From: an uncultured Thermoleophilia bacterium
GTDB taxonomy: Bacteria; Actinomycetota; Thermoleophilia; UBA2241
Length of the DNA stretch: 64,000 nucleotides
Direction: 5' to 3'
Assembly: GCA_963762125.1 (NCBI GenBank)
Contig: CAVXJO010000012.1
Coordinates: 26,392-90,391 of the forward strand
Position numbers and translations under genes: made by a program. The notes under the pieces are model-generated. The model had not been told where the DNA came from and ran no database searches. It was given only the letters and a program-made list of their open reading frames with translations. This document shows positions 3,381-58,611 of the stretch, one piece after another; position 1 is the first letter of the stretch; the number at the start of each line of letters is the position of its first letter.

Positions 3381-3543
3381 GACCCAACCCCCAGTTCGGC
3401 AGGGTGCCATCTTACATCGGGGGTGGCGGTCGCGAGACGAGCGGCGCCGGGCCCCGGGGCGGCGCTCGGCCGCTTGGGTGGGCGCCGCCTGGATGCACGT
3501 GTCCCGGCGCATCGGCTACCCGGCGACGGACTATGATCGGCGC

Positions 3544-10969: not shown

Positions 10970-11092
10970 ACCGGCATTGTCGGCCGAATGGCCTCATTTC
11001 TATAGCATCTCTTTGCGACTTCGGGGCTCAGCGCCGGCGCGACAGCCAACGCGAGCGTCTAGGCGGACGACGCCCGGGGGAACAACCCCGGT

Positions 11093-24348: not shown

Positions 24349-24370
24349 GGCGTGTCCTGTGCGAACCCGG

Positions 24371-24697
24371 TCAGACCCTGAAGCCGGGCTCGCGCACGAC
24401 CACGACCGGGCAGCCCGCCCGCATGACGACTGCAGGCGACACATTGCCCGTGGACGCGTGGCGGAGGCGTGACCGTGGCCGGCGGCTCATGGCGATGAGC
24501 CCAGCGCCGCCGGTCTCAGCCTCATTGCCACGCACTACCTCGACCTCGACGGGGTCTTGGGTGGAGGCGACGAGATCGGCCGCGGCAGCCGTCCGGGCGC
24601 CGGGGCCGCCGCATGCGAGCATGCTCCTCTCGATCACCTCAACCCTCCTCGCACGACGGACCAGGACTGCTTCCCTCCTCAATTGAAGCAGTCCCAC
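24371..24697 (-). CDS. short universal-stress-protein-like ORF (C-terminal USP motif; N-terminal half missing or degenerate)
   Basis: ...GGAGLIAMSRRPRSRLRHASTGNVSPAVVMRAGCPVVVVR matches the USP C-terminal G-x2-G-x9-G(S/T) and CPVLVV motif. An upstream in-frame stop lies immediately 5' of the GTG. Confidence 0.4.
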   Translation of the reverse strand: MGLLQLRREAVLVRRARRVEVIERSMLACGGPGARTAAAADLVASTQDPVEVEVVRGNEAETGGAGLIAMSRRPRSRLRHASTGNVSPAVVMRAGCPVVVVREPGFRV

Positions 24698-24829
24698 TCA
24701 CGCCCTACATCGAGCGCGAGAAGGAGCATGCCTCCATTCGTTAGACTGAGAAATCGGTCATCCGAAAGGCTGAGCGTCACAACTGGTCCCTGAGCCTTGA
24801 GTGAGCGTCGCGATGCCGGCGTCGGCGCG

Positions 24830-25492
24830 TCAGACGAGGCCGCGTCGGATGGCGATGGCCGTGGCCTCCGTGCGCGTGGAGACGCCGAGCTTGGACATGA
24901 CGCTGCTCACGTGCGTCTTGACGGTGGCGACGCCGATGACCAGGCGCCCGGCGATGTCGGCGTTGGTGAGCCCGTCCGCCATGAGCTTGAGCACCTGCTG
25001 CTCGCGTGCCGTGAGCGAGTCGGCGCCCGGCTGCGGCGCGGACACCGAGCGCACGAGCGCGTCGGCGGCCTCGGGCGCCAGCGTGGAGCGCCCGGCGTGG
25101 GCATTGCGCACGGCGTCGGCGAGCTGGTCGGCCGACACGTTCTTCATCAGGTAGCCGATCGCGCCGGCGCGGAGCGTCTCCCCGATCAGGTCTTCCTCCG
25201 TGAAGCTGGTCAGGGCGACGACCTTGGTGCCCGGGCACGAGGCGAGGATCCGCCGCGTCGCCTCGATCCCGGAGGTGCCGGGCATCACGAGGTCCATGAG
25301 CACGACGTCCGGCCGCAGTCCTTCGCAGAGCCGGACCGCATCCTCGCCGTCGCCCGCCTGTCCGACCAGTTCGATGTCGTCGAACATCCCGAGCACGACC
25401 TCGAGCCCGCTCCGCACCAGCACGTGATCGTCGACGATGACGACCCGGATCTTGCCCTCGCCGGCGTCCGGCACCGCGCCTCCCTCAGTCAT
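24830..25492 (-). CDS. NarL/LuxR-family response regulator
   Basis: MTEGG...IRVVIVDDHVLVRSGLEVVL (REC domain) and a C-terminal LuxR HTH (LTAREQQVLKLMADGLTNADIAGRLVIGVATVKTHV). ATGA overlap with the upstream kinase gene. Confidence 0.9.
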   Translation of the reverse strand: MTEGGAVPDAGEGKIRVVIVDDHVLVRSGLEVVLGMFDDIELVGQAGDGEDAVRLCEGLRPDVVLMDLVMPGTSGIEATRRILASCPGTKVVALTSFTEEDLIGETLRAGAIGYLMKNVSADQLADAVRNAHAGRSTLAPEAADALVRSVSAPQPGADSLTAREQQVLKLMADGLTNADIAGRLVIGVATVKTHVSSVMSKLGVSTRTEATAIAIRRGLV

Positions 25493-26982
25493 GCTTCTCC
25501 GTCCTGACGCCATTCCGCCGTCACCGTCGTGCCGGCGCCCGGGGCGCTGTCGACGGTGACCGCCACTCCGGCCTCCAGAGCGCGCTCGCGCATGATGGCG
25601 AGCCCGAAATGCTCGGGGGTCACCGTGGCCTCGTCGAACCCGCGCCCGTCGTCGCGCACCGTGAGGCGCGCTGCCGGTCCCGTGAGGTCGAGCATAACCC
25701 ACGCCTCGCCCGCGCCGGAATGACGACTCACGTTCTGGAGGGCCTCCTGGGCGATGCGGAACAGCGCCACAGCGACCTGCTGCGGCACCCGGACGCTCCC
25801 CCGCACCTCGTGGTGTACGGTGACGCGCGACCCGCCTTCGGTGGCCGCGGCCAGCTGCTCCAGCAGCGTGGTGAGCGACGCTTCGGCCAGCGTGACGGGG
25901 CGCATCTCCATCAACAGCGTGCGCATCTCGGCGAGCGCGCCACGCGCCAGCCGCTCCACGTCTTCGACGTTCTCGCGCGCCTCGTCGGTCGTCGGCCGCC
26001 AGCGGCGGCGGATGGCCTCGGCCTTGAGGCTCGCCGCGAACAGCGACTGCGTGACGGAGTCGTGCAGGTCACGCGCCAGCCGCGAGCGCTCGGTCGCCGC
26101 CGCGGCCTGGCCGATCTCGTCCCGCAGGCGCGCGTTCTCGATGGCCAGCGCGACCTGGCCGCCGAACGACGCCGCCAGACGCACGTCGAGGTCGGTGAAC
26201 TCGCGCTCGCGCCGATAGGTCAGCGCGAGCACCCCGTAGGCCTCGCTGCGCACCAGCAGCGGCACGGCGAGGAGCGCGCCGCCCGTCTCGCCCTTGGCCA
26301 CCGGTACCGGCGCGCGCTCGGCGAGCGCGCGCACGACGGCGTCGTCGCGCCGCGACACGGGCAGCGCACCATCGCACGACAGCGAGCCGGTCGCGGCGGC
26401 GACCTCGAGGACCTCGGCCTCCGGATCGAAGCGGTAGACACAGCAGCCGTCGCTGCCCAGCAGCTGGCTCGCCTGATCGATCACCCGGCCGAGCAGGTCC
26501 GACAGCGGCCGGTCCGAGTCCAGCACCACGACCTCCTGCAGCGTCTGCAGTTGCGCCGCCAGCGACTCCAGCATCACGGTGGTGGAGCGCTCGGTCTCGT
26601 AGAGCTGGTCCACCTGCTTGAACAGGTAGGAGAGGGCGATGAGCGCGACCCCGCTGAGCACGCTGAAGCAGACGACGGTGATGGTGGGGCCGTCGACCCG
26701 GTCCTGGATGATGATCACGTAGACGGCGAGCCCGAGACAGACCAGGGCAACGGCGATGGTCGTGCGCACGCGGAGCGTCAGCGCCGCCAGGGTGACCGGT
26801 ACGAGATAGAAGCCCGCGATCGGATAGCTGGGGATCGCAAGGTCGAGCACCAGGGCGCCGGCGATCGTCGCCGCCACCAGCACGGTCACCAGGAAGCGGT
26901 GGCTGCCCAACGCCGACACCCGCCCCACAAGGCGGGGGAACCGCCGCTGGTGATAGGCCGGGTCGCCGGCCGTCGTCGTCAC
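25489..26982 (-). CDS. membrane sensor histidine kinase with a GAF domain (HisKA_3/NarX-type)
   Basis: An N-terminal TM region, GAF domain, ARDLHDSVTQSLFAASLKAE (HisKA_3 H-box), and a C-terminal HATPase domain (DDGRGFD...GLAIMRERA). Confidence 0.85.
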   Translation of the reverse strand: MTTTAGDPAYHQRRFPRLVGRVSALGSHRFLVTVLVAATIAGALVLDLAIPSYPIAGFYLVPVTLAALTLRVRTTIAVALVCLGLAVYVIIIQDRVDGPTITVVCFSVLSGVALIALSYLFKQVDQLYETERSTTVMLESLAAQLQTLQEVVVLDSDRPLSDLLGRVIDQASQLLGSDGCCVYRFDPEAEVLEVAAATGSLSCDGALPVSRRDDAVVRALAERAPVPVAKGETGGALLAVPLLVRSEAYGVLALTYRREREFTDLDVRLAASFGGQVALAIENARLRDEIGQAAAATERSRLARDLHDSVTQSLFAASLKAEAIRRRWRPTTDEARENVEDVERLARGALAEMRTLLMEMRPVTLAEASLTTLLEQLAAATEGGSRVTVHHEVRGSVRVPQQVAVALFRIAQEALQNVSRHSGAGEAWVMLDLTGPAARLTVRDDGRGFDEATVTPEHFGLAIMRERALEAGVAVTVDSAPGAGTTVTAEWRQDGEA

Positions 26983-27066: not shown

Positions 27067-27627
27067 TCAGAAGAGGTGCTCGATGAGGATGTTGACGCCG
27101 ATGCCGATGAGGATGAGGCCACCGACGACCTCCATGCGCCTGCCGAGGAGCGCCCCGAAGCGCCGGCCGAGGTGCAAGCCGACGGCGGTGAAGACGAAGG
27201 CGACGACGCCGATCACGATCGCCGGGAACCAGATCGAGACGCCGAGGATCGCCAGCGACAGACCGACGGCGAACGCGTCGATGCTCGTCGCCACGGAGAG
27301 CACGACGAGCGAGGCTCCGCGCGTGGCGTCCCTGGCCGCGCGCTCCGCCTCGTCCCCCCAGACGGCCTCGTAGATCATGTGGCCGCCGATGGCGGCCAGC
27401 AGGGCGAAGGCGACCCAGTGGTCGACGCTGCTGATCCAGCGCTCGACCGACCGGCCGGCTAGCCACCCGACGATCGGCATGAGCGCCTGGAACAGGCCGA
27501 AGTGCCAGGCAAGCCGCAGCGTCGTGCGGCGGCTCACCCGGGTCGCGTTCAAGCCGATGCCGATCGACACGGCGAACGCGTCCATGGCGAGGCCGACGGC
27601 GATACCGAGGAGCGTGAGGGGGTTCAC
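27067..27627 (-). CDS. mntP: manganese efflux pump MntP
   Basis: GTG start; (M)NPLTLLGIAVGLAMDAFAVSIGIGL...SIDAFAVGLSLAIL shows the duplicated DAFAV motif of the MntP/DUF204 family. Confidence 0.85.
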   Translation of the reverse strand: MNPLTLLGIAVGLAMDAFAVSIGIGLNATRVSRRTTLRLAWHFGLFQALMPIVGWLAGRSVERWISSVDHWVAFALLAAIGGHMIYEAVWGDEAERAARDATRGASLVVLSVATSIDAFAVGLSLAILGVSIWFPAIVIGVVAFVFTAVGLHLGRRFGALLGRRMEVVGGLILIGIGVNILIEHLF

Positions 27628-27687
27628 GGGCGGCTGCGCTCGGCGCTCACTGGGATCACGGCACCTCCAAGGCTCTGCCCCCGCCGG

Positions 27688-27835
27688 GGAAGAAGAAAAG
27701 ACCCCGGCACCTGTCGTGCCGAAGGTCTTGCCGCGAAGTGCGCGACCGGGGCGAGGCCCGGGATGTCGATCGCGCCGCCCGTGGTGGCAGGCCGGCTACT
27801 CCCCAACGGAACGCTGAGTCTAGCCGCGCGGCCGA
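27688..27835 (-). promoter_or_regulatory. yybP-ykoY (Mn2+) riboswitch in the mntP 5' leader, with an intrinsic-terminator expression platform
   Basis: The minus-strand leader contains the conserved GGGGAGUAGCC motif and a downstream GGCAAGACC segment. These are followed by a 14-bp hairpin aagaccuucggcac-gacag-gugccggggucuu plus a U-tract UUUUCUUCUUCC, about 60 nt before the mntP GTG. Confidence 0.65.
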
Positions 27836-28017: not shown

Positions 28018-28479
28018 ATGACCGCATCGACAGTGGCTGCATCGGGGTTCCTCACCGCGCATAGCAGCCTTGGGGCCGACCTGACGCTGCTGGTGTCGGT
28101 GGCGGCCATCGTCCTGCTCAGCGCCGGCGTCTTCCTCGCCCGGCGGCGGCGCTACGACGCACACCGCTGGACGCAGACCGTGGCAGTGCTCCTCAACGCC
28201 GTCATGGTCGTCACCTGGATGCTGCGCTCGCTGGTGCAGTACATCCTCCCGGGGATACCGGGGAGCCTCAGCGAGCGCGGACACGCCCTCGCCGCCGTGC
28301 ACGCCGCGACCGGCGCCGTCGGCGTGGCGCTCGGTCTCTTCCTCCTCGTGCGCGCCAACCAGCTCACGCGCCGCCACGAGAGCGTGAGCCGCTACAAGCC
28401 GGTCATGCGCATCGCCTACCTGGTCTACCTGGCCGGGTTCTTGCTCGGCGTCGCGCTGTACGTGGTGACCTATGGCTGA
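28018..28479 (+). CDS. small 4-TM membrane protein (possibly DUF420-like), first gene of the B12-radical-SAM operon
   Basis: An AGGAGG RBS precedes MTASTVAASGFLTAHSSLGADLTLLVSVAAIVLL... Its stop overlaps the next gene's start by 8 bp (ATGGCTGA). Confidence 0.6.
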   Translation: MTASTVAASGFLTAHSSLGADLTLLVSVAAIVLLSAGVFLARRRRYDAHRWTQTVAVLLNAVMVVTWMLRSLVQYILPGIPGSLSERGHALAAVHAATGAVGVALGLFLLVRANQLTRRHESVSRYKPVMRIAYLVYLAGFLLGVALYVVTYG

Positions 28480-29938
28480 GGCCCGGGACGTCCTACTCGT
28501 CTTCCCGGGCCGGCAGCGCGCGCCCGATCCCCAGGTGCCGCTCCAACTGCTCCACGTGGCGTCCGCGCTGCGCCGCGCCGGCTACCGCCCGCGCATCGCC
28601 GACCTGCGCCTCGGCGACTTCCGCACCCTGCCCCTCGGCGACCCCGTGTTCGTCGGCATCACCGCCATGAGTGGTCCTCAGATCCGCTACGGCCTCGAGT
28701 TCGCAGGGCGAGTCAGAGCGGAGCTGCCGGGCACGCCCATCGTCTGGGGGGGTGTGCACCCGACCCTGCTGCCCGAGCAGACGGCCGCGGACGCGCGTGT
28801 CGACGTCGTCGTCCGCGGCGAGGCCGAACTCGTCGTCGGACCGCTGGCCGATGCACTCGCGGCCGGCGAGCCACTCGACGCCGTCGCCGGCATCACCTAC
28901 AGGGAAGGAGGCGCCGCCGGCGCCGACGTCGTGCGCTCCACCGCGGACGCCGCGCTCGTCGACCTCGACGAAATCCCGCTGGGGCTGCCCTACGAGCTCC
29001 TGCCTCTGCAGCTCTATCCGACGCTCCAGGCCGGCCGCGTCCACCTGCAGACCAGTCGCGGCTGCCCGAACCGCTGCGGGTTCTGCTACAACACCGCCTT
29101 CAACAAGCGGCGCTGGCGCGGCAAGAGCCCGGAGCGCGTGGTCGACGAGATGGAGTGGCTGCTGCGCCGCTTTCCGCAGGCGAAGATCCTCGATCCGGTC
29201 GACGACAATCTCTTCGTCGACCGCAAACGGGTGGAGGCCATCTGCGAGCTCATCCTCAGCCGCGGCCTCAAGTTCCGCTGGCGCGCCAACTGCCGGTTCG
29301 ACTACCTCGCCCGCTACGACGCGGAGTTCCTGCGCCTCGTCGAGCGCGCCGGCTGCATGGAGCTCGACTTCGGCGGCGAGAGCGGCTCGGCGCGCATGCA
29401 GGACTTCGTCTGCAAGGACGTCTCCGCCGACGAGATCCTCGCGGCCGTGGCCAGCCTCCGCCGCTGGGCGCCGAGCATCGACCCCTTCGTCTCGTGGCTG
29501 AGCGGGCTTCCCGGCGAGACCTACGCGGACATGGAGAAGACGTTCGACCTCATGGATGCGATGGGGCGCGCCAACCCGCGCACGCAGCACTACGGGATCT
29601 TCCTCTACACGCCCTTCCCCAGCCCGCTGCTCGACGAGCTGCCGCCTGAGTTCACGCCACCGGCGTCGCTGGAGGAGTGGGGCCGGATCGAGGTGTTCCA
29701 CTTCCTGCCGCCGTGGCACACCCCCGAGTATGTGAAGAAGCTGCGCTCGATCTCGGCGGTGACCCGCTGGGCCTTCTACCCGCGCTCCCGGATCGACGAG
29801 CACGGCGCCGCCTTCAAGACCGCCTACGGCGCGATGTGCGCGGCGGCCCGGGTGCGCTGGCGTCACCGGGCTTTCGGCTTCCCTGTGGAACTGCGTCTCG
29901 CGAACGCGGCCGCGCAGCACCTCCGCGGGTTCCTGTGA
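28472..29938 (+). CDS. B12-binding-domain radical SAM enzyme (class B rSAM), paralog 1
   Basis: The N-terminal cobalamin-binding fold is VLLVFPG...IADLRLGDFRT...VFVGITAMSG. The radical SAM cluster motif is SRGCPNRCGFC, followed by an extended C-terminal domain. Confidence 0.85.
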   Translation: MAEARDVLLVFPGRQRAPDPQVPLQLLHVASALRRAGYRPRIADLRLGDFRTLPLGDPVFVGITAMSGPQIRYGLEFAGRVRAELPGTPIVWGGVHPTLLPEQTAADARVDVVVRGEAELVVGPLADALAAGEPLDAVAGITYREGGAAGADVVRSTADAALVDLDEIPLGLPYELLPLQLYPTLQAGRVHLQTSRGCPNRCGFCYNTAFNKRRWRGKSPERVVDEMEWLLRRFPQAKILDPVDDNLFVDRKRVEAICELILSRGLKFRWRANCRFDYLARYDAEFLRLVERAGCMELDFGGESGSARMQDFVCKDVSADEILAAVASLRRWAPSIDPFVSWLSGLPGETYADMEKTFDLMDAMGRANPRTQHYGIFLYTPFPSPLLDELPPEFTPPASLEEWGRIEVFHFLPPWHTPEYVKKLRSISAVTRWAFYPRSRIDEHGAAFKTAYGAMCAAARVRWRHRAFGFPVELRLANAAAQHLRGFL

Positions 29939-31416
29939 GCGCTGAGGAGCCGGCTGCGCTGAGCAGGCGCGGCGCCGGCGGCGGCAGCCGCGGCGGTGTG
30001 GCCCGCAGCTCGCCCTGGGCGAGCGGCGCCTGGGCGTGGCCGCGGACACCGGACCGGCGGCTGCTGGCGCTCGGCGTCCTCCTCCAGATCGCCCTAGCGC
30101 TGCTGGCGTTCGATCACGCGCACGACATGCGACTCTTCCAGGCGACCGGGTACCTCGTCGCGACCGGCCACAGTCCCTACGCGCCGCTCGACCTCAGCGC
30201 CGTGTTCCACGACGCGGTGTTCCAGGGGCGCCTCGCGATCGGCTATCCGCCGCCGTGGCCGTTGCTGCTCGGCGGCATCTACCGGGTGACCTACGCGCTC
30301 GTGCCCGACCTCCACCTGTACGCGGCGGCGATCCGGCTGCCGGTGATCGCGGCCGACGTCGGGCTCGCTTACCTAGCCGGCGCGGCGCTCCAGAACCTCG
30401 GCGCCGCGCCCTCCGTCGTGCGCCGCGCCTGGCTGGCGCTCCTCTTCAATCCCTTTCTGCTCTACGTGGGCGCCGTCTGGGGCCAGATCGACGCCGTGGT
30501 CGCGCTTCTCTCCCTGGCCGCCCTCCTGCTGGCGGCCTCCGGCCGGCGCGACCTCTCCGCCGTGACGCTGGCGCTGGCCGTCTGCGTCAAACCGACGGCG
30601 GCCCCGATGCTGCTCGCCGTGCTCCTCTTCGTCGGCGCGCCCTCCTTGCTCCGCGCGGCGCGCTATGCGTCCGTCTTCGCCGTCGGCGCCTTCGTCTTCT
30701 ACGTCCTGCCCTTCCTCGTCCTCGGATGGGACGCCTCTCCGGCCCACATGGCTAACGCACAGCTGTCCATGATCGGAGCGATGTCCCTCACGGCGGTCGC
30801 GCGCCTCTGGACCGAGTCGCTCGCCTTGGGCGGCCACTGGTGGCTTCTGGGCCTGCTCTGGGCGCCCGCGCTCCTCGTCGCCGCGCTCGTCGCGCGCGGC
30901 AGGTCACGCGAGCCCGCCGGCCTTCTTGCCGTCGGCGCGGCGCTGACGCTCGTGTTCTTCCTCTTCCGCACCTGGCTGGCCGAACCGAACGTGATCGTCG
31001 TGCTGGCGCCGGTGCTCGTACTGGCCGCGCTCGACCGGCTGGACCGGCGGCTCTTCACCGCACTATGGGTCGTCCCGCTCGCCTTCGTCGCGGCCGACGC
31101 CTCGCCGCTGCGACTGCTGTGGCGGTTGTTCCCCGCAGCCGCGGACGAGGCGCTGGCGTTCGCCGGGGCTCACGGCGACGTCACGACGGCCGTGAGAGCG
31201 GCCCTGGTCATCGTGTGGCAGGTCGTCGGCTGGTGGATCGTCGTCGCCTGTCTGCGTAAGCCGGGAGCCGAAACAGCGGGGTCCGGCGCGGCCGAGGCGG
31301 CCGCGAAGTCCTCCTCGCCGGGCCCCGGGCTGCCGCAGGCCAGGCGCGTGGGTGCCGGCTCGGCGGGCGCCGCGCCGGCAGGTGCGGCCGATCCCGTGCA
31401 GGATGTCCTGCCGTGA
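29935..31416 (+). CDS. polytopic membrane protein resembling GT-C / DUF2029-type glycosyltransferases (about 12 TM helices)
   Basis: GTG start overlapping the rSAM1 stop as GTGA. The sequence LFNPFLLYVGAVWGQIDAVVALLSLAALLLA...LALAVCVKPTAAPMLLAVLLF is typical of GT-C mannosyl/arabinosyl-transferase-like membrane domains. This is family-level only. Confidence 0.5.
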   Translation: MSAEEPAALSRRGAGGGSRGGVARSSPWASGAWAWPRTPDRRLLALGVLLQIALALLAFDHAHDMRLFQATGYLVATGHSPYAPLDLSAVFHDAVFQGRLAIGYPPPWPLLLGGIYRVTYALVPDLHLYAAAIRLPVIAADVGLAYLAGAALQNLGAAPSVVRRAWLALLFNPFLLYVGAVWGQIDAVVALLSLAALLLAASGRRDLSAVTLALAVCVKPTAAPMLLAVLLFVGAPSLLRAARYASVFAVGAFVFYVLPFLVLGWDASPAHMANAQLSMIGAMSLTAVARLWTESLALGGHWWLLGLLWAPALLVAALVARGRSREPAGLLAVGAALTLVFFLFRTWLAEPNVIVVLAPVLVLAALDRLDRRLFTALWVVPLAFVAADASPLRLLWRLFPAAADEALAFAGAHGDVTTAVRAALVIVWQVVGWWIVVACLRKPGAETAGSGAAEAAAKSSSPGPGLPQARRVGAGSAGAAPAGAADPVQDVLP

Positions 31417-32291
31417 GGACCGTCTTCGAGCTGGGCGACGGCCTCGCGCTGGCGCTGGCGGAGACGGCCGGCGCGGGAGAGCAGCCTGATCACGGCGCCG
31501 TCGGGCCGTACCCCACGAGCGGATTGCAGAAGGGGCTCCTGCTGCTCGACGAGGGGCGGGAGCTCAGCAGCGAGGGCGTCGGCTTCGGCGTCCCGATCCT
31601 CAAACGCGGACCGCGGGCGGTGTTCCCCGGCAGTGGTGAGGCCGTCGTCCATCCCGGGACCCCGCGCGCGATCACGATGACCTACGCGATGGACCGCGTC
31701 GAACGGCTCGGCGGGCGCCGCCACCGCAGCTTCTTCCACAGGCCGCTCGATGAGGCGCGCGAGGCATTCGCCCTTCTCTACCGGCGCGCTCCGCTGCTTC
31801 GTCGTCCGCTGCTGGCCGCGTCCAACGGGATCCGCTGGCTGCTGCACGTGCGCACGCGGTTCGAGCCGACCGCCCCGGTCGCAGTCGTGCCCGTCACCTA
31901 TCGGGCCGGCGATCGCCCCGGCGAGGTCGTGGTCAGCGCCGATCTGAGCCGCCTGCCCGACGCCGTGACCGAGGTCGTGCTGATGAACGAGCTCGGGGCC
32001 GACGTGTTCGACCACTACCGGGACAGCGACGGGGCCGACCTGCAAGGGACGGGCATCGGCGCCTGGAACCAGGTCGGCGCCGCCACGGCCTCGTTCGTCG
32101 CCGAGGAGAGCGGCGTCTCATTCACTCTCGAGAGCGGTCCAGACCCGGATGCGCCCGGCGTGCGCCTCTACCGTGGCCGCGAGGTCGCCAAGGGCCGGCT
32201 CGCGTGGGCCGGGTTCGGCTACACCCTGCGGCCCGGCCCGCCGACGTTCACGTACACGCTGCACGTCGCACGCCGCGAGGTCCGGCGGTGA
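31413..32291 (+). CDS. hypothetical protein (292 aa, soluble, no recognised domain) within the rSAM operon
   Basis: GTGA overlaps at both ends place it inside the coupled operon. There are no TM segments. Confidence 0.5.
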   Translation: MRTVFELGDGLALALAETAGAGEQPDHGAVGPYPTSGLQKGLLLLDEGRELSSEGVGFGVPILKRGPRAVFPGSGEAVVHPGTPRAITMTYAMDRVERLGGRRHRSFFHRPLDEAREAFALLYRRAPLLRRPLLAASNGIRWLLHVRTRFEPTAPVAVVPVTYRAGDRPGEVVVSADLSRLPDAVTEVVLMNELGADVFDHYRDSDGADLQGTGIGAWNQVGAATASFVAEESGVSFTLESGPDPDAPGVRLYRGREVAKGRLAWAGFGYTLRPGPPTFTYTLHVARREVRR

Positions 32292-33640
32292 GCTCGGTGC
32301 TCCTCGTCTATCCGTTCTTCCGTCGCTCGCTCGACCGCTCGCGGTTCCGCTTTCCGCCGCTCGGGCCGGCGTACGTGGCGGCGAGCCTGCGCCGGGCCGG
32401 TCACGAGGTGAGGCTCCTCGACTGCACGTTCCTGAGCCGCGAGCGGGCGTGGGAGCTGGCCCTCGCGGCCCGGGCGGACGTCGCCGGCGTGTACTGCATG
32501 GCGACCATGCGCGAGGACGCCCTGTGGTTCGCGCGGCGACTGCGCGGCAGGTGCGACCTGCTCATCGCCGGCGGCCCCCTGCCGACCTGCGAGCCGGAGT
32601 CGTTCCTCGCCGACTTCGACGTGGTCGTGCGCGGCGAGGGCGAACAGACGATGGTCGAGGCCCTCGCCGCGCGCGCAGCAGGAGCGGACCTGGACGCCGT
32701 GCCCGGCGTGGTAGCCCGGAGTACGGGCGGCGCAGCCGGCGCGGCTCCGGAGCGACCGCTCGCCGCCGATCTCGACGCCCTCCCCTTCCCCGCTCGCGAC
32801 CTGCTGCCCAACGCCGCCTACGTCAAGCACGGGCGGCGGCGCTACGGCTACGCCGTCACTACGGTGATGAGCAGCCGCGGCTGCCCGTTCGCCTGCGAGT
32901 TCTGCAGTAACGTCGTCTTCGGCGCCTCCTACCGCGAGCGTTCACCGTCAAGCGTCGTCGACGAGGTCGAGGAGGCGCTCGCGCTGGGCTACGACCGCAT
33001 CGCCTTCGCCGACGACGTCTTCACCCTGCGCCGCGAGCGCGTTGCCGCCGTCTGCGCCGAGATCGAGCGACGCGGGCTGCGCTTCGCCTGGGAGTGCCTC
33101 GCCCGGGTGGACGGCATCGACCGGGCGACCGCCGAGACGATGCGCAGCGCGGGCTGCCGGACCGTCTTCTTCGGCATCGAGTCCGGCAGCGACGAGGTCC
33201 TGCGCATGATGCGCAAAGGCATCACCGCGGCCCAGGCCCGCAAGGCCGTCTGGGCCGCTCACGCGGCCGGCCTCGAAGTCGGCGCGTTCTTCATCCTGTG
33301 TTACCCGGGCGAGACCGACGAGACGGTGCTCGAGACCCTCCGCTTCGCCGCATCCCTGCCGCTCGACTACATCGGCCTCTCGATGCCATACCCGCTGCCG
33401 GGGACCCCCCTGGGAGAGCGGATGAAGAGCCGCGTGACGGGCGAGTCGCGGCCCGACGGCAGCCCGCTCATGAACCAGCAGCTGACCTACGAGGGCGAGT
33501 TCTCGGCGGCCAAGATGCGCTTCGCCATCCTCGCCGGCAAAGGACAGTTCGTGCTGCGCCGGCGGCTGGGGCGCTTCGGCCCCGCCGCCCTCCGGCTCAC
33601 GCAGGCGCCGGTCGAAGCGCTCTTCCGGCGCCTGCGCTGA
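32288..33640 (+). CDS. B12-binding-domain radical SAM enzyme, paralog 2
   Basis: VSSVLLVYPFF...VRLLDCTF... (B12 domain) and SSRGCPFACEFC (rSAM motif), with the same architecture as paralog 1. Confidence 0.85.
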   Translation: MSSVLLVYPFFRRSLDRSRFRFPPLGPAYVAASLRRAGHEVRLLDCTFLSRERAWELALAARADVAGVYCMATMREDALWFARRLRGRCDLLIAGGPLPTCEPESFLADFDVVVRGEGEQTMVEALAARAAGADLDAVPGVVARSTGGAAGAAPERPLAADLDALPFPARDLLPNAAYVKHGRRRYGYAVTTVMSSRGCPFACEFCSNVVFGASYRERSPSSVVDEVEEALALGYDRIAFADDVFTLRRERVAAVCAEIERRGLRFAWECLARVDGIDRATAETMRSAGCRTVFFGIESGSDEVLRMMRKGITAAQARKAVWAAHAAGLEVGAFFILCYPGETDETVLETLRFAASLPLDYIGLSMPYPLPGTPLGERMKSRVTGESRPDGSPLMNQQLTYEGEFSAAKMRFAILAGKGQFVLRRRLGRFGPAALRLTQAPVEALFRRLR

Positions 33641-33743
33641 CGGCCGGGCCGACGGAGCCGATCCCGGTTCGGGACCGGCCACTCCGGAGGGCGCCGGACC
33701 CGCGGCCCGCGACCGGCGCCGCGGTCGCCGGCCGCCGCTCGCC

Positions 33744-35078
33744 TCAGGCGGCGGTCGTCTGCTTGGCAGCGAACGCCGTCATCGTCTCGTCGATGCGGCG
33801 CCGCAGCCAGCTCTCGTCGATGTCGGAACCGAAGACGAAGGTGACCTCGTTCTCGTGCGTCCAGTCGCGGCCCTCGTCGTCACCACCCAGACGCTCCCAC
33901 AGCCGCGACCCCGGGAGGGGCATGGGCACGTTGAAGGAGATCTCCGCGAGCGGCAGGTCGAGCGCGAAGGCCAAGGTCTGCTCGATGTCGGCCGCGGTCT
34001 CGCCCGGATAGCCGACGATGAAGAAGGCGGCGACCTCGATGCCCGCCTCCCGATACACCGTCGCCGCCCGCACCCCCTGCTCCACCGTGGTCTCCTTCTG
34101 CATCAGGTCCAAGGTCGCCTGGCTGCCCGACTCGAGACCCAGGTAGACCCTCCGGCACCCGGAGGCTCGCATGAGCCGCGCCGTCGAATGGTCGATCCCG
34201 CTGACGCGTGAGAGGCAGCTCCACGTGAGTCCGAGGGGCGTCATCCGCCGGCAGAACTCCTCCAAGTAGTCGCGCCGCAGCGTGAACGTGTCGTCGGCGA
34301 TCCACAAGCCGTCGTACCCGAAGTGGACGATCTCGTCGATCTCGGCGAACACGGCGTCCAGCGGGCGCAGGCGTACCTCGCGACCGAAGACGGGCTTGGA
34401 GCAGAACTCGCACCCGAAGGGACAGCCGAGCGTCGCGAGGAGCGTCGTCGGCCGATGGCCGGTGCGCGCCCACTCCCGCTGGTAGGCGCGGTGGTCGAAG
34501 TCGCCGCGGTCCGGCAGGGGAAAGCCGGCGATCTGCTCCTGCGTGTGATGCACCGGCGGATTGTCGACCCGAGAGCCGCGCCGATCCGTGACGAGGCCGG
34601 CATAGTCTTCGAGCGGCAGATCGCCGGCCGTGACCGGCGTCGCCCCGCGCTCCAGGTACTCGCGGCAGAATGCGGGGAAGCTCAGGTCGGCTTCGCCGCG
34701 GAACACGACGTCGACATGGGGAAGGAAGCGCCCCGGGAAGACGGTCGGCAGCGGGCCGCCGGCCACCAGCAAGGCGTCGGGCAACCGTTCACGCACCGCG
34801 GCGGCGAGGCGGACCGCGTTGCCGGTGAGGCTTACCATGGCCGAGATGCCGACGACCGCCGGCTGCCAGGCGACCAGGTCGTCGAGGAGCGCGTCGAGCG
34901 AACTGAACGTGCCGTCGAAGACCCGCGCCTCGACGCCGGCACGCTTGAGGTGGGCGCTGAGCAGTGCGAGGCCGAGGGGCGGGAACAGGACCTCGGTCCT
35001 CGCCCTGGTGCGGAAATAGGGAAACACCAAGGCCACGCCTCGTTGCCGCATGAGCCCCGGTGTCTCGACCATGAGCAA
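33744..35078 (-). CDS. B12-binding-domain radical SAM enzyme, paralog 3 (convergent with paralog 2)
   Basis: VALVFPYF...ARVFDGTF (B12 domain) and TLGCPFGCEFC (rSAM motif). An alternative start at MRQRG near 35051 is possible. Confidence 0.85.
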   Translation of the reverse strand: MLMVETPGLMRQRGVALVFPYFRTRARTEVLFPPLGLALLSAHLKRAGVEARVFDGTFSSLDALLDDLVAWQPAVVGISAMVSLTGNAVRLAAAVRERLPDALLVAGGPLPTVFPGRFLPHVDVVFRGEADLSFPAFCREYLERGATPVTAGDLPLEDYAGLVTDRRGSRVDNPPVHHTQEQIAGFPLPDRGDFDHRAYQREWARTGHRPTTLLATLGCPFGCEFCSKPVFGREVRLRPLDAVFAEIDEIVHFGYDGLWIADDTFTLRRDYLEEFCRRMTPLGLTWSCLSRVSGIDHSTARLMRASGCRRVYLGLESGSQATLDLMQKETTVEQGVRAATVYREAGIEVAAFFIVGYPGETAADIEQTLAFALDLPLAEISFNVPMPLPGSRLWERLGGDDEGRDWTHENEVTFVFGSDIDESWLRRRIDETMTAFAAKQTTAA

Positions 35079-35174
35079 TGCTGGCCCGCCACGACGCGCG
35101 CGTCAACATCGACTTCCCTCGGCGCGGTACGCGGGGCTGCGCACGGTGCACGCGCTGTGGCAGTATCGTCGGCG

Positions 35175-36026
35175 ATGGACGTGCGCGCACTCATCGACCG
35201 GCGCTACTCGTGCCGCGCTTACCTCGAACGGCCGATCGCCGCGGGGGACCGCGATGCGCTCGCGACGTTCATGGCGGCGAAGACGGCGGGACCGCTCGGT
35301 TCGGCGGTGCGCTTCGGCCTCATCGCCGCCTCGTCGGACGACGAGGGCGCTCTCAAGCGTCTCGGGACCTACGGCTTCATCAAGGGCGCCAGGGGGTTCC
35401 TCGTCGGCGCCGTGCGCAAGGGGTCACGCGACCTCGAGGACTACGGCTATCTCCTCGAAGGGCTCGTCCTGCGCGCCACCGAGCTCGGGCTGGGCACCTG
35501 CTGGCTGGGTGGGACCTTCACGCGCAGCACCTTCACGTCCCGCTTCGGCGGCGTCGACCGCGACGAGACGATCCCCGCCGTCGTCTCCGTCGGCTACCCG
35601 GGAGACGACGGCACGGAGCGCATCCGCGAGCGCGAGGAGGGCACGCGGCGCTACCCGCCCGACGAGCTCTTCTTCGGCGACGAGTGGGGCGTGCCGCTCG
35701 GCCGCCAGGGCACGGACGGCTACGCCCCGGCGCTCGAGGCCGTACGCATGGGCCCCTCCGCGACCAACAAGCAGCCCTGGCGCATCGTCCGTCGCGGCGG
35801 CGACTGGCACTTCTACCTCGAACGCACGAAGGGCTACGGCAAGGGCAGCCCGTGGTTCAAGCTGCTGCGCATCGCCGACCTGCAGCGCGTCGACCTCGGC
35901 ATCGCCATGTGCCACTTCGATCTTGTGGCGCGCGAGTCCGGCCGCGACGGCCGCTGGATCGTCGAGGACCCGGGCCTCTCGTTGCCGGGCCCGGGCATCG
36001 AGTACACGGCCACCTGGCGCGGCTGA
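35175..36026 (+). CDS. nitroreductase-superfamily protein (TM1586-type putative nitroreductase)
   Basis: MDVRALIDRRYSCRAYLERPIAAGDRDAL...GLGTCWLGG...PWRIV. Encoded divergently from rSAM3. Confidence 0.7.
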   Translation: MDVRALIDRRYSCRAYLERPIAAGDRDALATFMAAKTAGPLGSAVRFGLIAASSDDEGALKRLGTYGFIKGARGFLVGAVRKGSRDLEDYGYLLEGLVLRATELGLGTCWLGGTFTRSTFTSRFGGVDRDETIPAVVSVGYPGDDGTERIREREEGTRRYPPDELFFGDEWGVPLGRQGTDGYAPALEAVRMGPSATNKQPWRIVRRGGDWHFYLERTKGYGKGSPWFKLLRIADLQRVDLGIAMCHFDLVARESGRDGRWIVEDPGLSLPGPGIEYTATWRG

Positions 36027-36155: not shown

Positions 36156-37592
36156 ATGGAAGCAGAATGGGAAGGCGCCGGGCTGCCGGCGAGTGACGCC
36201 GCCCGGTGGGAGGCGCGCGAGCGCGACCGGGCGCGGACGCGCCCGTGGACGCTCGCGCGCCCCGCCGGGGCGACGGCCAGGTCCAACAGGTTCCTGGCCA
36301 AGGTGCTCGGCGTCCTCGCCGCGGTCGGCATGTTCGTCAGCGTGGCGCTCGTCGTGCCCGTGACGTCACTGTCGTCACTCGCCGGCCCCGGCGGTGCGCT
36401 CACGGCCGTCGGCCGCGTCACCGCCATGTCGGGCACGTACCTGCTGCTCGTCACGCTGCTCCTGATCGCGAGAATACCAGCGGTCGAACGGGCTATCGGC
36501 CAGGACCGCCTCGTCAAGCTGCACCGTCGACTGGGACCGGCGATCCTCGGCCTCATCAGTGTGCACGTGGTCGCCGTCGTCCTGGGCTACGCCGCCCAGG
36601 TGTCCGCCGGCCCGTGGCACGAGCTCATCATCCTGGCCACGACGTTCCCGGGCATGATGCTCGCCGTCGCCGGCCTCGGCCTGCTCTTCCTGGCCGCGTT
36701 CACGTCCTACCGGTACGTGCGTCGCCACATGAAGTACGAGACCTGGTGGGCGGTCCACCTGTACACCTACCTGGCAGTCGCGCTTTCGATCCCGCATCAG
36801 GTCCTGACCGGCGCGCCCTTCATGGGTCACCCGCTGGCGATGGCCTGGTGGCTGACGCTCTGGTTCGCGACCGCCGGCGCCGTCATCGTCTATCGCTGGG
36901 GCCTGCCGATCGCGCGCAGCCTCCAGCACAGGGTGACGGTCCACAGCGTCGAGCAGGAGGCGCCGGGCGTGGTCTCGGTGACCATGACAGGCCGGAACCT
37001 GCACAAGCTGGAGGCCTCCGGCGGCCAGTTCCTGCACTGGCGCTTCATGAAGCGCGGCATGTGGTGGCAGGCGCACCCGTACTCGCTGTCGGCCGTGCCG
37101 ACCACCAGCCGGATGCGGATCACCGTCAAGGACCTCGGCGACCACAGCAGTTCGTTGGCGGCCATCGCGCCCGGGACGCGCGTGGCCATCGAAGGCCCCT
37201 ACGGAGCCTTCACGCATCGTGCGCGGCACACCGACCAGGTCGTGCTCGTCGCGGCCGGCGTCGGGGTCACGCCCGTCAGGGCGCTGCTCGAGGACCTGCC
37301 GCGTCACGTCGACGTCGTCGCGATCCTGCGCGGCGCCAGCCGGCGCGACCTGGTCCTGCGCGACGAGCTGGCCCACCTGGTGGGCGAGCGCGGCGGGCAA
37401 CTCCACGAGGTCATAGGGCCGCGCTCGCACGCGCGTCTCGACGAGCAAGGCCTGGCCGGGCTCGTCCCCGACATCGCCGACCGGGACCTGTACGTCTGCG
37501 GCCCCAACGGCTTCATGCAGGGCGTCATCGCCGCCGCCCGCAACCTGGGCGTCCGCGGCGAGCGCATCCACCACGAGGACTTCGCCTTCTAG
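36156..37592 (+). CDS. ferric-reductase-like transmembrane domain protein with C-terminal FAD- and NAD(P)H-binding domains (NOX/FRE-like)
   Basis: An AAGGAG RBS; a 6-TM domain with His pairs (HVVAVVLGY...HLYTYLAVALSIPH); an FAD-binding HPYS motif; and an NAD-binding GVGVTP motif. Confidence 0.8.
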   Translation: MEAEWEGAGLPASDAARWEARERDRARTRPWTLARPAGATARSNRFLAKVLGVLAAVGMFVSVALVVPVTSLSSLAGPGGALTAVGRVTAMSGTYLLLVTLLLIARIPAVERAIGQDRLVKLHRRLGPAILGLISVHVVAVVLGYAAQVSAGPWHELIILATTFPGMMLAVAGLGLLFLAAFTSYRYVRRHMKYETWWAVHLYTYLAVALSIPHQVLTGAPFMGHPLAMAWWLTLWFATAGAVIVYRWGLPIARSLQHRVTVHSVEQEAPGVVSVTMTGRNLHKLEASGGQFLHWRFMKRGMWWQAHPYSLSAVPTTSRMRITVKDLGDHSSSLAAIAPGTRVAIEGPYGAFTHRARHTDQVVLVAAGVGVTPVRALLEDLPRHVDVVAILRGASRRDLVLRDELAHLVGERGGQLHEVIGPRSHARLDEQGLAGLVPDIADRDLYVCGPNGFMQGVIAAARNLGVRGERIHHEDFAF

Positions 37593-37626
37593 GCGTCCGC
37601 GACCAGACCCGACCACGGGAGGAGTC

Positions 37627-38133
37627 ATGAAGCGTTCAGCAATCGTCATCGCCGCCACCGCCGCCGGTCTGGCCGCCGTGATCAGCTTCAAGCCGCACGG
37701 CGTCGCCGGCGGCGTCACCACGGCGGCGTCCACCGCCGCTCTCACCACCGGCAACGCCAACGTCTCCGGCGCCCAGACGGTCGTCGGCAGCGTGCAGCAG
37801 CTCAGCGGCGGCCTCGGCGACATCCAGGTCAAGGTCACCGCCGCGAACGGCAAGATCGTGAGCGTCGGCATGGCCCAGATGAATCTCCACGGGCCGCAGA
37901 GCCAGCAGATCTCGAACAACGTCATCCCGCAGCTGGAGCAGCAGGTCATGGCCTCCAACGGCGGCCCCATCCACGGCGTCTCCGGCGCCACGTACACGAG
38001 CCGTGCCTTCGGTTCATCCCTGCAGGCCGCGCTCAGCCAACTGAAGGGAGGGGCAAATGCGCAACTGGCAGCAGCAGGTAATGGGAACGGTGGTCTCGTT
38101 CAGTCTCCGGGAGGACAGGAGCACGACGACTGA
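37627..38133 (+). CDS. secreted FMN-binding domain protein (FMN_bind; predicted ApbE flavinylation target)
   Basis: Signal peptide MKRSAIVIAATAAGLAAVISF...; the domain ends with ...VSGATYTSRAFGSSLQAAL (Thr in the S/T-GAT flavinylation motif). A low-complexity C-terminal tail overlaps apbE by 77 nt. Confidence 0.75.
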   Translation: MKRSAIVIAATAAGLAAVISFKPHGVAGGVTTAASTAALTTGNANVSGAQTVVGSVQQLSGGLGDIQVKVTAANGKIVSVGMAQMNLHGPQSQQISNNVIPQLEQQVMASNGGPIHGVSGATYTSRAFGSSLQAALSQLKGGANAQLAAAGNGNGGLVQSPGGQEHDD

Positions 38134-38866
38134 GCGCGGCGAGGTGCAAGCCCAGCGCGAGCTCATCGCTGAAGGAGTGGAGCGCGCCCGGGCCAAGCTG
38201 CAGTGGGTCGACGACGTGTTCAGCACCTGGAAGCCAGGGAGCCCGGTAAGCCGGCTGCGCCGGGGTGAGATCCGGCTCGAGGACACGCCGCCCGAAGTCG
38301 CCGAGGTGCTGGAGCTCTGCCGCCGCGTGCGGGTCGCGTCGGACGGCTGGTTCGACCCGTGGGCGATGCCGGGCGGCGTCGACCCGACGGGGCTCGTCAA
38401 GGGCTGGGCGGTCGAGCGCGCCCTCGACGAACTGAAGACGGCCGGGGCGCCGGCGGCGATGATCAACGCCGGAGGCGACATCGCCGCGTTCGGACAGCCT
38501 GCCCCCGGCCAGCCCTGGCGCATCGCGATCGAGAATCCGCTCTCGATGCAGCGGATCCTCCTCACGGCCGATCTGGCCGCAGCGGGCGCCGTGGCCACCT
38601 CCGGCTCGTACCAGCGCGGCGCGCATCTGGTCGATCCGCGCAGCGGCGGCCCCACGACTGCGCTTCTCTCGGCCACGGTGATCGGGCACGACCTGGCGTT
38701 CGCCGACGCGCTCGCGACCGCCCTGTACGCGTCCGGCGGCGACCTGCTCGAGCGCCTGTCGCTGATCACCGGCTACCACGGGTTCATCGTGGACGGCCGC
38801 GGCGACATCCACGCCTCGCGGGGCTTTCCCATCGTGCTCCGCGGCGTGGAGGCGGTGCCGGCCTGA
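38057..38866 (+). CDS. apbE: FAD:protein FMN transferase ApbE
   Basis: AGGGAGGGG RBS; VMGTVVSFSL...DPTGLVKGWAVERALDEL...SGSYQRGAHLVDPRSGGP are ApbE family hallmarks. Confidence 0.8.
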   Translation: MRNWQQQVMGTVVSFSLREDRSTTTERGEVQAQRELIAEGVERARAKLQWVDDVFSTWKPGSPVSRLRRGEIRLEDTPPEVAEVLELCRRVRVASDGWFDPWAMPGGVDPTGLVKGWAVERALDELKTAGAPAAMINAGGDIAAFGQPAPGQPWRIAIENPLSMQRILLTADLAAAGAVATSGSYQRGAHLVDPRSGGPTTALLSATVIGHDLAFADALATALYASGGDLLERLSLITGYHGFIVDGRGDIHASRGFPIVLRGVEAVPA

Positions 38867-51515: not shown

Positions 51516-51603
51516 GCCCGCGGGGCGGCTGCGTCGCCGCGGCCGCCGGCCGGTTCCGCCGGAGCCAGAAGACAACCGCGCCCGTCCGGAGTAAAGTCCG
51601 CGG

Positions 51604-58469: not shown

Positions 58470-58611
58470 CGTCGTATGTCGTGCCGCCGGCCCCACCCGC
58501 GTAGCGGCCATCACGGCAAGGCGTTTCCAGCCGTCCGACCTCGGGCAGGCACTTCCGTATCGGACTAAATGACTCCGGCTTCCGCTGGAGGCCGTTCACG
58601 GAAGGAACACC

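Follow-up and report, generated by a model that had tools for sequence, protein, structure and literature searches.

Several polyprenyl-phosphate-sugar systems, among them GtrA/B/C, ArnC/ArnD/ArnE-F/ArnT and DprE1/E2 with Emb/Aft, tailor a sugar at the lipid-linked stage, and glycosyltransferases (GTs) of the GT-C superfamily use polyprenyl-phosphate-sugar donors at the outer face of the membrane. In the cyclitol-ether branch of hopanoid biosynthesis (the GT2 enzyme HpnI, HpnK and HpnJ) and in the archaeal system of calditol synthase (Cds), a hexose is placed on a membrane lipid and then remodelled by a radical S-adenosylmethionine (SAM) enzyme; HpnJ is the proposed ring-contraction enzyme, acting on lipid-linked glucosamine (PMC13459092). 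In archaeal tetraether lipid biosynthesis, the gene encoding the cobalamin (B12)-dependent radical SAM enzyme Ted overlaps the gene of a beta-rich partner, Hgs, and both proteins act on the same lipid (bioRxiv 10.1101/2025.10.20.683597). More than 200,000 radical SAM enzymes belong to class B, the cobalamin-binding class, and for very few of them is a substrate known (PMC12931638). Here we analyse a 64,000-nucleotide stretch of contig CAVXJO010000012.1 from an uncultured Thermoleophilia bacterium (hereafter, the window), which carries a gene cassette with three such enzymes, rSAM1, rSAM2 and rSAM3, and a 292-amino-acid protein, U292. The cassette is real, conserved across domains and so far undescribed, and its core is a new protein family, U292, coupled to the B12-binding radical SAM enzyme rSAM2.

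In the literature, we found no paper describing the cassette, and none joining DUF2029 with radical SAM enzymes, DUF420 with radical SAM enzymes or B12-binding, or GT-C enzymes and polyprenyl phosphate with radical SAM enzymes. The reading we favour, tentatively and at somewhat less than even confidence, is that the cassette encodes a membrane-associated pathway in which B12-dependent radical SAM enzymes tailor a lipid-anchored sugar, followed by a GT-C step. Each step proposed here has a separate precedent, and it is the combination that would be new.

U292 and rSAM2 form the conserved core of the cassette

As the G+C content of the window is about 71%, genes were called from third-position GC as well as from open reading frames (ORFs), and the gene set rests on this frame analysis together with the ORF listing. 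Five plus-strand genes encode a DUF420 membrane protein, rSAM1, a GT-C-like protein, U292 and rSAM2; the rSAM3 gene converges on that of rSAM2 and is followed divergently by a nitroreductase gene (Table 2). An AGGAGG ribosome-binding site lies ahead of the first ATG of the operon, that of the DUF420 gene, and the operon junctions are ATGGCTGA at 28472 and GTGA at 29935, 31413 and 32288. These genes, their positions and their overlaps agree in full with the original prediction, which had been made from the sequence alone.

A homologue scan with one genome per species returned 80 loci, and the window proteins were mapped onto 85 loci. Table 1 groups 77 of the 80 classified loci; many absences in it reflect short contigs. 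The remaining three are single Bacteroidota, Chitinivibrionales and Spirochaetota metagenome-assembled genomes (MAGs), each with the U292–rSAM2 pair. In 64 of the 70 loci that could be evaluated, the U292 stop codon and the rSAM2 start codon share a 4-nt overlap. The recurrence of this overlap, and of the gene order in 85 independent loci, goes far beyond what chance would give.

Table 1. Number of loci in each taxonomic group that carry the individual cassette genes.
Group	Loci	U292	rSAM2	rSAM3	rSAM1	DUF420	GT87	GT2	Nitroreductase
Thermoleophilia	24	24	24	17	12	21	22	0	8
Other Actinomycetota	10	10	9	9	8	7	10	0	0
Chloroflexota (including Longilinea arvoryzae KOME-1)	36	36	36	31	0	29	36	31	0
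Archaea	7	7	7	0	0	3	0	0	0

Conserved across these loci with the 4-nt overlap, U292 and rSAM2, usually with DUF420, make up the invariant core. rSAM3 and the GT-C protein complete the standard bacterial set: of 73 bacterial loci, 58 have rSAM3, placed convergently as in the window, and 70 have the GT-C gene. No archaeal locus has rSAM3. rSAM1 and the nitroreductase are lineage-specific add-ons. The former is restricted to Actinomycetota (20 of 34 loci) and varies in position, lying before GT87, after rSAM3 or before DUF420; the latter was found only in Thermoleophilia or Thermoleophilia-like loci (11 of 85 by hidden Markov model (HMM), 8 of 24 Thermoleophilia loci by tblastn). Synteny is thus strong in Actinomycetota, both within and outside Thermoleophilia, and in Chloroflexota, and archaea have a reduced form, but the unit that had been proposed, three radical SAM enzymes together with a nitroreductase, is not the one that is conserved.

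The closest relatives of the window are Thermoleophilia MAGs from Danish soils, with U292 proteins 83–84% identical to that of the window; further carriers derive from bog, fen, palsa, permafrost and groundwater. The archaeal loci belong to Methanoperedens, Methanothrix/Methanotrichaceae and one unclassified archaeon. Two cassette copies, L010 and L014, come from one MAG (MFD02134.bin.3.466), perhaps owing to strain heterogeneity or to a duplication. L011, a 2.5-kb contig that bears the label Deltaproteobacteria and has a U292 79% identical to that of the window, is probably mis-binned Thermoleophilia DNA. In one Methanoperedens locus (L029, 8152–9813, plus strand) and one unclassified archaeal locus (L038, 8245–9882, plus strand), a radical SAM protein of 545–553 amino acids is encoded directly upstream of U292–rSAM2. 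It has a C-terminal HHH_3 motif, no Pfam B12-binding match and weak similarity to TIGR04013 and TIGR04014; with no SPASM match and weak matches to B12-dependent radical SAM families, it was not assigned as Gms or Tes.

U292 has a sugar-enzyme-type fold and occurs fused to glycosyltransferases

The original prediction described U292 as having no recognisable domain. This is correct insofar as there is no match in Pfam or NCBIfam, but the fold is recognisable: the predicted structure, a confident model, is a galactose-mutarotase-like beta-supersandwich. To this is added an Arg-rich helical hairpin (residues 106–144). Invariant positions are mostly Arg (R98, R124, R130, R141, R256 and R262) and Glu (E97, E187 and E257), and no His occurs among the invariant or nearly invariant columns of a 29-sequence alignment. 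Such a set of residues, dominated by Arg and Glu and without a conserved His, suggests an anionic, phosphate-bearing ligand. Because U292 has neither a transmembrane (TM) segment nor a signal peptide and can be fused to a radical SAM enzyme, we consider it cytoplasmic.

Homologues of U292 are scarce. We detected 304 in a collection of 5.8 billion clusters, nearly all metagenomic and nameless, and a U292 profile searched against 1.84 billion representatives recovered only 566 clusters, almost all stand-alone proteins of about 280 amino acids. U292 is a new protein family and the obligate partner of rSAM2.

Three fusion proteins stood out. P0145 joins U292 to rSAM2 within an otherwise normal cassette, P0249 joins GT87 to U292, and P0251 joins a short Glycos_transf_2 domain (PF00535, 110 bits, motif DSDLQHPPE) to U292. 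The GT2 domain of P0251 has weak NCBIfam matches to the polyprenyl-phosphate sugar synthases ArnC, PgfS, PpgS and AglJ, and its gene lies behind a GT87 gene and a cellulose-synthase-like GT2. At the GT2–U292 fusion locus (L086), U292 is followed by an ORF of 220 amino acids (3404–4063, plus strand) that is cut by the contig end, resembles no cassette protein and is not rSAM2.

The fold and the fusions bear on an alternative that we regard as unlikely, namely that the substrate is the hydrocarbon chain of a membrane lipid. The radical SAM enzymes would then act on alkyl or isoprenoid chains by methylation, cyclisation, cross-linking or desaturation (compare Gmm, GrsA/B, Ted and HpnP/R), with U292 as a lipid-handling partner and the GT87-like and DUF420 proteins as membrane scaffolds. 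Most characterised lipid-modifying radical SAM enzymes do bind B12 (PMC13459092), and the archaeal Ted gene overlapping that of its Hgs partner is the closest architectural precedent (bioRxiv 10.1101/2025.10.20.683597). Also in keeping with this explanation, the carriers come from peat, fen, permafrost and soil, which are rich in unusual tetraether lipids (PMC11214058); rSAM2 has a membrane-type amphipathic tail; and there are modest matches to the ladderane-lipid B12-dependent radical SAM and HpnR models. However, U292 is like carbohydrate-enzyme domains, and no AttH/CrtC-type structure is among its listed structural matches. On these grounds of fold, U292 was also rejected as an AttH/Hgs analogue, the role that analogy with Ted–Hgs would assign to it. 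Its fusion to glycosyltransferases and the QxxRW-type GT2 of Chloroflexota cassettes likewise count against a chain substrate, and we saw no Tes, Mss, Gms or hopanoid genes in the loci examined. Moreover, rSAM2 of the window bacterium is 53–59% identical to its archaeal orthologues despite the difference between acyl and isoprenoid ether chains in the two domains.

The radical SAM enzymes fall outside characterised families

The three paralogues recognised in the original prediction, each with a CxxxCxxC cluster, are borne out by Pfam and by their mutual identity (rSAM1/2, 34%; rSAM1/3, 29%; rSAM2/3, 40%). Scores for rSAM1, rSAM2 and rSAM3 were 45.3, 64.8 and 59.0 bits, respectively, for B12-binding (PF02310, cut-off 32.1) and 51.3, 96.5 and 85.4 bits for Radical_SAM (PF04055, cut-off 29.5). 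The cluster reads CPNRCGFC at residue 198 of rSAM1, CPFACEFC at 199 of rSAM2 and CPFGCEFC at 219 of rSAM3. Domain order and this motif place all three in class B, and they are accordingly predicted to use cobalamin.

None of the three meets an NCBIfam cut-off among the models for HpnJ, HpnR, BchE, ladderane B12-dependent radical SAM, ApyD, QCMT, PhpK, AprD4 and BzaD; the best scores are 126–160 bits against cut-offs of 360–750. The best match of rSAM1 is ApyD (158 bits versus 750). rSAM2 matches HpnJ (160 versus 578), ApyD (147 versus 750), BchE (140 versus 481) and QCMT (TIGR04014; 130 versus 360), and rSAM3 matches BchE (132 versus 481). Archaeal and Longilinea (Chloroflexota) orthologues of rSAM2 likewise score below every curated cut-off, with HpnJ again the top match of the Longilinea protein (170 bits). 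Homologues carry generic database labels only, such as 'anaerobic Mg-protoporphyrin cyclase' or 'radical SAM protein'. With all scores under the cut-offs, the enzymes stand outside the characterised families. Neither of the two outcomes that the original prediction had named as speaking against it, a place in a well-characterised family or a lack of conserved synteny, was thus observed.

rSAM2 (450 amino acids) is the best-conserved cassette protein, with 49–90% identity across all loci. In bacteria and archaea alike, its C terminus is a conserved, basic and strongly amphipathic helix (hydrophobic moment 0.44–0.75), a feature that fits an enzyme working at the membrane surface.

Among protein sequences in the Protein Data Bank (PDB), rSAM2 matched QCMT first (9CCB, 95.6 bits, residues 90–382) and AprD4 second (94 bits). 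The AprD4 match, which reaches about 100 bits in NCBIfam, and the sugar-enzyme-type fold of U292 could be taken to indicate soluble cyclitol or aminoglycoside-like biosynthesis, in which the radical SAM enzymes would act on a free or nucleotide-activated sugar (compare AprD4, GenK and OxsB) and a glycosyltransferase would attach the product. We consider this highly improbable. Genes typical of such clusters, for aminotransferases, dehydrogenases or nucleotidyltransferases, show no conservation next to the cassette, and a membrane substrate is suggested by the close association with membrane proteins and by the amphipathic tail that rSAM2 has.

The match to QCMT, a structure identified through PMC12931638, raises the further question of whether the radical SAM enzymes C-methylate a ribosomal peptide or a protein side chain, in the manner of QCMT or of pathways for peptides made on the ribosome and modified after translation (RiPPs). 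QCMT is the best solved-structure match of rSAM2, and ApyD and RiPP C-methyltransferase models are among the NCBIfam matches. All of these scores are far below the family cut-offs, however, and the cassette occurs mostly in non-methanogens. As the original prediction had noted for this locus, there is no precursor-peptide-like ORF: none is evident in the 390-bp region upstream of the operon, and no small ORF (25–95 amino acids) is conserved in or around the cassette across 85 loci, where the only clusters were shadow ORFs inside the GT2 gene. The loci examined also contained no protease or RiPP-type transporter gene, and we found no match to a peptide-recognition domain. Of the explanations considered here, we give peptide or protein modification the least credence.

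Membrane proteins and flavoproteins associated with the core

The GT-C-like protein matches Pfam GT87 (30.8 bits, cut-off 25). When the window protein was taken together with 17 orthologues, 14 of the 18 sequences matched GT87 and the others ALG6/8, PIG-U, PIG-M or PMT_2. Its earlier assignment as a GT-C/DUF2029-like protein with about 12 TM segments therefore stands as regards the family, whereas hydropathy gives about 10–11 segments. His21 and Asp24 (FGHAYD) are invariant in the 18-sequence alignment and follow directly after the first TM segment. This Asp would sit where GT-C enzymes have their catalytic acidic residue, in what is predicted to be the first outer loop. There was no NCBIfam match; a PDB search with the single sequence returned nothing, and one with a profile returned only ALG6 (E = 0.057).

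Cassettes of Chloroflexota, but not that of the window, encode a 538-amino-acid cellulose-synthase-like GT2 between DUF420 and GT87. Its DDS, DAD, TLAEDLD and QQxRW motifs are conserved in at least 90% of 32 ORFs from 31 loci. With TM helices and the D, DxD, TED and QxxRW motifs, it has the hallmarks of a processive GT2 synthase (CesA/PgaC/NodC type); it scores 122 bits with the CelA domain model (cut-off 699) and 94 bits with PgaC.

The small protein with four TM segments encoded by the first gene matches Pfam DUF420 (32.7 bits, cut-off 30.5) and has four hydrophobic segments. DUF420 is present in 66 of 85 loci, including three archaeal ones; the archaeal orthologues score 19–23 bits in Pfam, below the cut-off, and were recovered by a cassette-specific HMM. 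H49, M68, H95 and M130 do not vary among 62 orthologues. DUF420 corresponds to the CtaM family, which one proposal makes ancestral to each half of the haem A synthase CtaA (PMC8239418) and another, more recent one a copper exporter (PMC13344008).

This relationship is the starting point for another explanation, in which haem or a membrane cofactor bound by DUF420 is modified anaerobically by B12-dependent radical SAM proteins resembling BchE/BchQ. The kinship of DUF420/CtaM with one half of CtaA, invariant His and Met pairs that suit a metal or haem, redox flavoproteins adjoining the cassette, and BchE among the top NCBIfam matches of all three radical SAM enzymes (126–140 bits) are compatible with such tetrapyrrole chemistry. 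We nevertheless judge it very unlikely, as every BchE score is far under the cut-off of 481, the newer proposal for CtaM is copper export rather than haem chemistry, and the GT-C protein, the GT2 and the fusions between glycosyltransferases and U292 would be left unexplained.

The flavoproteins near the core vary with lineage. The window encodes a nitroreductase of the TM1586 type (TM1586_NiRdase, PF14512, 108.1 bits versus 27; PF00881, 50.5 bits). Three archaeal loci carry an FMN_red (NADPH-dependent FMN reductase) protein beside U292–rSAM2 (L029, 12325–13179; L048, 12437–13438; L079, 575–1147), fused in two of the three cases to a rubredoxin-like domain; in Thermoleophilia, this place is taken by a nitroreductase. 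Some Chloroflexota have a Pyr_redox_2 flavoprotein near the cassette, and L087 and L088 have Pyr_redox_2 and NMO. This pattern looks like non-orthologous replacement of a redox partner, which in the window is possibly the TM1586 nitroreductase, and fits interchangeable electron donors for the Fe–S and cobalamin cofactors.

A model for the tailoring of a lipid-anchored sugar

We propose that, on the cytoplasmic side of the membrane, a GT2 encoded elsewhere in the genome from which the window derives would attach a hexose to polyprenyl phosphate or to a membrane lipid. With its conserved Arg and Glu residues, U292 would bind the head group, sugar or phosphate, and present it to rSAM2, which would be held on the membrane by its basic amphipathic C-terminal helix. 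rSAM2, joined in bacteria by rSAM3 and in Actinomycetota also by rSAM1, might then carry out a radical C-methylation or a rearrangement or contraction of the sugar ring, with neighbouring flavoproteins (here the TM1586 nitroreductase) supplying electrons. The lipid-linked product would be flipped, and the GT-C enzyme could transfer or extend the modified sugar on the outside, yielding an envelope glycolipid or glycan. DUF420 might serve either as a flippase-like small membrane partner, comparable with GtrA or ArnE/F, or as a metal- or haem-binding redox partner; we consider the latter because of its two invariant His and two invariant Met residues. Substrate, reaction type, electron donors and topology are proposals of this model, built on the observed gene content, coupling and fusions, the fold and the family memberships.

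Several observations weigh against this model. The structural matches of U292 in Foldseek (TM-score about 0.4–0.5, 7–13% identity) hold at the level of the fold only, and U292 was rejected as a canonical mutarotase or aldose-1-epimerase, having no Pfam match and no invariant His. The window contains no GT2 of either type, and the other 84 loci lack, up to 10 kb from the cassette, any short GT2 similar to polyprenyl-phosphate sugar synthases, so that the link to polyprenyl-phosphate sugars goes back to one fusion protein, P0251. Some fusions may be indel artefacts, because the U292 and rSAM2 genes overlap by 4 nt; one member of the rSAM2 cluster has 742 residues, exactly 292 + 450. An AlphaFold2 model of the fusion P0145 reached a predicted local distance difference test (pLDDT) score of 75 and a predicted TM-score (pTM) of 0.48, from an alignment with four sequences over the radical SAM half, and gave no confidently defined contact surface between U292 and rSAM2. 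The invariant His and Met residues make DUF420 poorly suited to be a simple flippase. Finally, archaeal loci have no nearby GT-C gene, so the GT-C enzyme is not obligatory for the core reaction.

The original prediction had preferred an envelope lipid or glycoconjugate to a RiPP. The fold of U292, the glycosyltransferase fusions, the Chloroflexota GT2 and the lack of a conserved small ORF speak for that choice; the conserved unit, however, differs from the one envisaged, and the archaea again lack a nearby GT-C enzyme. A more specific form of the lipid-anchored sugar model, possible but on balance rather doubtful, is that U292 and rSAM2, with DUF420, are a two-component enzyme shared by Bacteria and Archaea. 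Its B12-radical chemistry would be directed at a sugar head group, borne by a membrane lipid or a polyprenyl carrier, and would consist of C-methylation or of contraction to a carbocyclic, ether-linked cyclitol, so giving rise to a new class of envelope glycolipid. If so, this class would occur in the abundant uncultured Thermoleophilia and Anaerolineae of soil and peat and in Methanoperedens and Methanothrix, and its head group could act as an acid-stable biomarker and represent an adaptation to wetlands that are anoxic and acidic.

Genes around the cassette

Downstream of the nitroreductase gene, a trio of genes for a ferric-reductase-like flavocytochrome, an FMN_bind protein and an ApbE flavin transferase (Table 2) keeps its place beside the cassette in close Thermoleophilia relatives and in L024 only. 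Given this limited synteny, the trio is probably a separate extracytoplasmic flavoprotein module.

On the other side lies mntP. Its leader contains a terminator-like hairpin and weakly matches, below threshold, the yybP-ykoY manganese riboswitch (RF00080; 19.6 bits versus a gathering score of 45; E = 0.002 for a 521-nt search). A riboswitch of this type is plausible given the gene, and it would fill part of the intergenic stretch that also holds the cassette promoter. No Rfam family reached its gathering score in the window, and no cobalamin riboswitch was found upstream of the operon.

Beyond mntP, a GAF/HisKA_3 sensor kinase with a DosS/DevS-like architecture is encoded with a response regulator and a permease. 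Such a kinase also adjoins the cassette in other Thermoleophilia loci (L002, L006, L007, L009 and L012–L014), which hints at hypoxia control of oxygen-sensitive cassette enzymes. DosR-box-like palindromes (GGGACN4GTCCC, one mismatch allowed) occur 4 times in the window versus 6.4 expected, which is not significant; one of the four lies upstream of the operon.

The B12-binding protein towards the end of the window, already pointed out in the original prediction, is real, but lies 27 kb from the cassette without any link to it. The window also encodes a multihaem cytochrome, a large signalling protein and an MMPL-family transporter; the last could be involved in lipid export, and we saw no linkage between it and the cassette.

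Table 2. Positions of the cassette genes and of other features in the window.
Feature	Position	Strand	Evidence
DUF420 (CtaM-family) membrane protein with four TM segments, 153 amino acids, operon gene 1	28018–28479	+	Pfam DUF420
rSAM1, B12-binding radical SAM enzyme	28472–29938	+	Pfam B12-binding and Radical_SAM
GT87/DUF2029-like polytopic GT-C glycosyltransferase	29935–31416	+	Pfam GT87
U292, 292-amino-acid cytoplasmic protein, new family	31413–32291	+	No Pfam/NCBIfam match
rSAM2, core B12-binding radical SAM enzyme	32288–33640	+	Pfam B12-binding and Radical_SAM
rSAM3, B12-binding radical SAM enzyme, convergent with rSAM2	33744–35078	-	Pfam B12-binding and Radical_SAM
TM1586-type nitroreductase-fold flavoprotein, divergent from rSAM3	35175–36026	+	Pfam TM1586_NiRdase
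Ferric-reductase-like TM flavocytochrome (Ferric_reduct, FAD_binding_8 and NAD_binding_1), FMN_bind protein and ApbE flavin transferase	36156–38866	+	Pfam
mntP	27067–27627	-	
mntP leader, weak match to yybP-ykoY riboswitch	27672–27806	-	RF00080, below threshold
Terminator-like hairpin in mntP leader	27724–27702	-	
GAF/HisKA_3 sensor kinase (DosS/DevS-like architecture), LuxR/GerE response regulator and Usp-fused amino-acid permease	21979–26982	-	
Signalling protein of about 1,290 amino acids: MerR-type helix-turn-helix, three GAF, HD(-GYP-like) and GGDEF	7115–10993	-	
Multihaem cytochrome (NapC/NirT and cytochrome c7 domains)	51595–52923	+	
MMPL-family transporter	58573–60882	+	
B12-binding_2 and B12-binding protein (corrinoid-protein or B12-sensor type), cut by window end	63448–64000	+	

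Significance and comparison with known systems

The cassette is a compact and strongly conserved module. It brings in a new family, U292, as obligate partner, has clear links to glycosyltransferases, and is found in methane-cycling archaea and in the lineages dominant in soil, peat and wetland communities. It is experimentally tractable because one carrier at least, Longilinea arvoryzae KOME-1 (L066), is in culture. Should the product be a modified lipid-linked sugar, the chemistry of radical SAM enzymes on head groups would reach beyond HpnJ and Cds, GT-C glycosylation pathways would gain a new tailoring step, and orphan polar lipids or biomarkers in peat could find an explanation. Were the substrate instead a hydrocarbon chain or a cofactor, its conservation across domains would still be informative.

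Among the systems with which the cassette can be compared, QCMT/MgmA (9CCB), the B12-dependent radical SAM glutamine C-methyltransferase of methyl-coenzyme M reductase (MCR), resembles rSAM2 in length. However, rSAM2 scores 130 against 360 with TIGR04014, and the cassette is found mainly in bacteria, which lack MCR. The GT-C protein shares its polytopic build and a conserved Asp in the predicted first outer loop with GT87 enzymes, the mycobacterial PimE-type polyprenyl-phosphate-mannose-dependent mannosyltransferases; its GT87 score is weak, and no genes for phosphatidylinositol mannoside (PIM) or lipoarabinomannan (LAM) are nearby. Ted–Hgs differs in the partner, as Hgs is an AttH/CrtC-type hydratase and U292 a supersandwich.

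The hopanoid cyclitol-ether branch and archaeal Cds are like the proposed pathway in that a hexose on a membrane lipid is then remodelled by a radical SAM enzyme. HpnJ is the top NCBIfam match of rSAM2, yet its score is far below the cut-off; squalene-hopene cyclase, HpnH and HpnK are absent from the loci examined, and the Chloroflexota GT2 has no HpnI match. U292, the GT-C protein and DUF420 are extra in the cassette. The Gtr, Arn and Dpr systems differ in that the cassette tailors with B12-dependent radical SAM enzymes and a new protein family, that its protein with four TM segments is DUF420 rather than GtrA or SMR, and that the window has no short GT2. What the cassette has in common with them is a set of parts and an order of events: a small membrane protein with four TM segments, a GT2, a GT-C enzyme and, as we propose, tailoring of the sugar before GT-C transfer.

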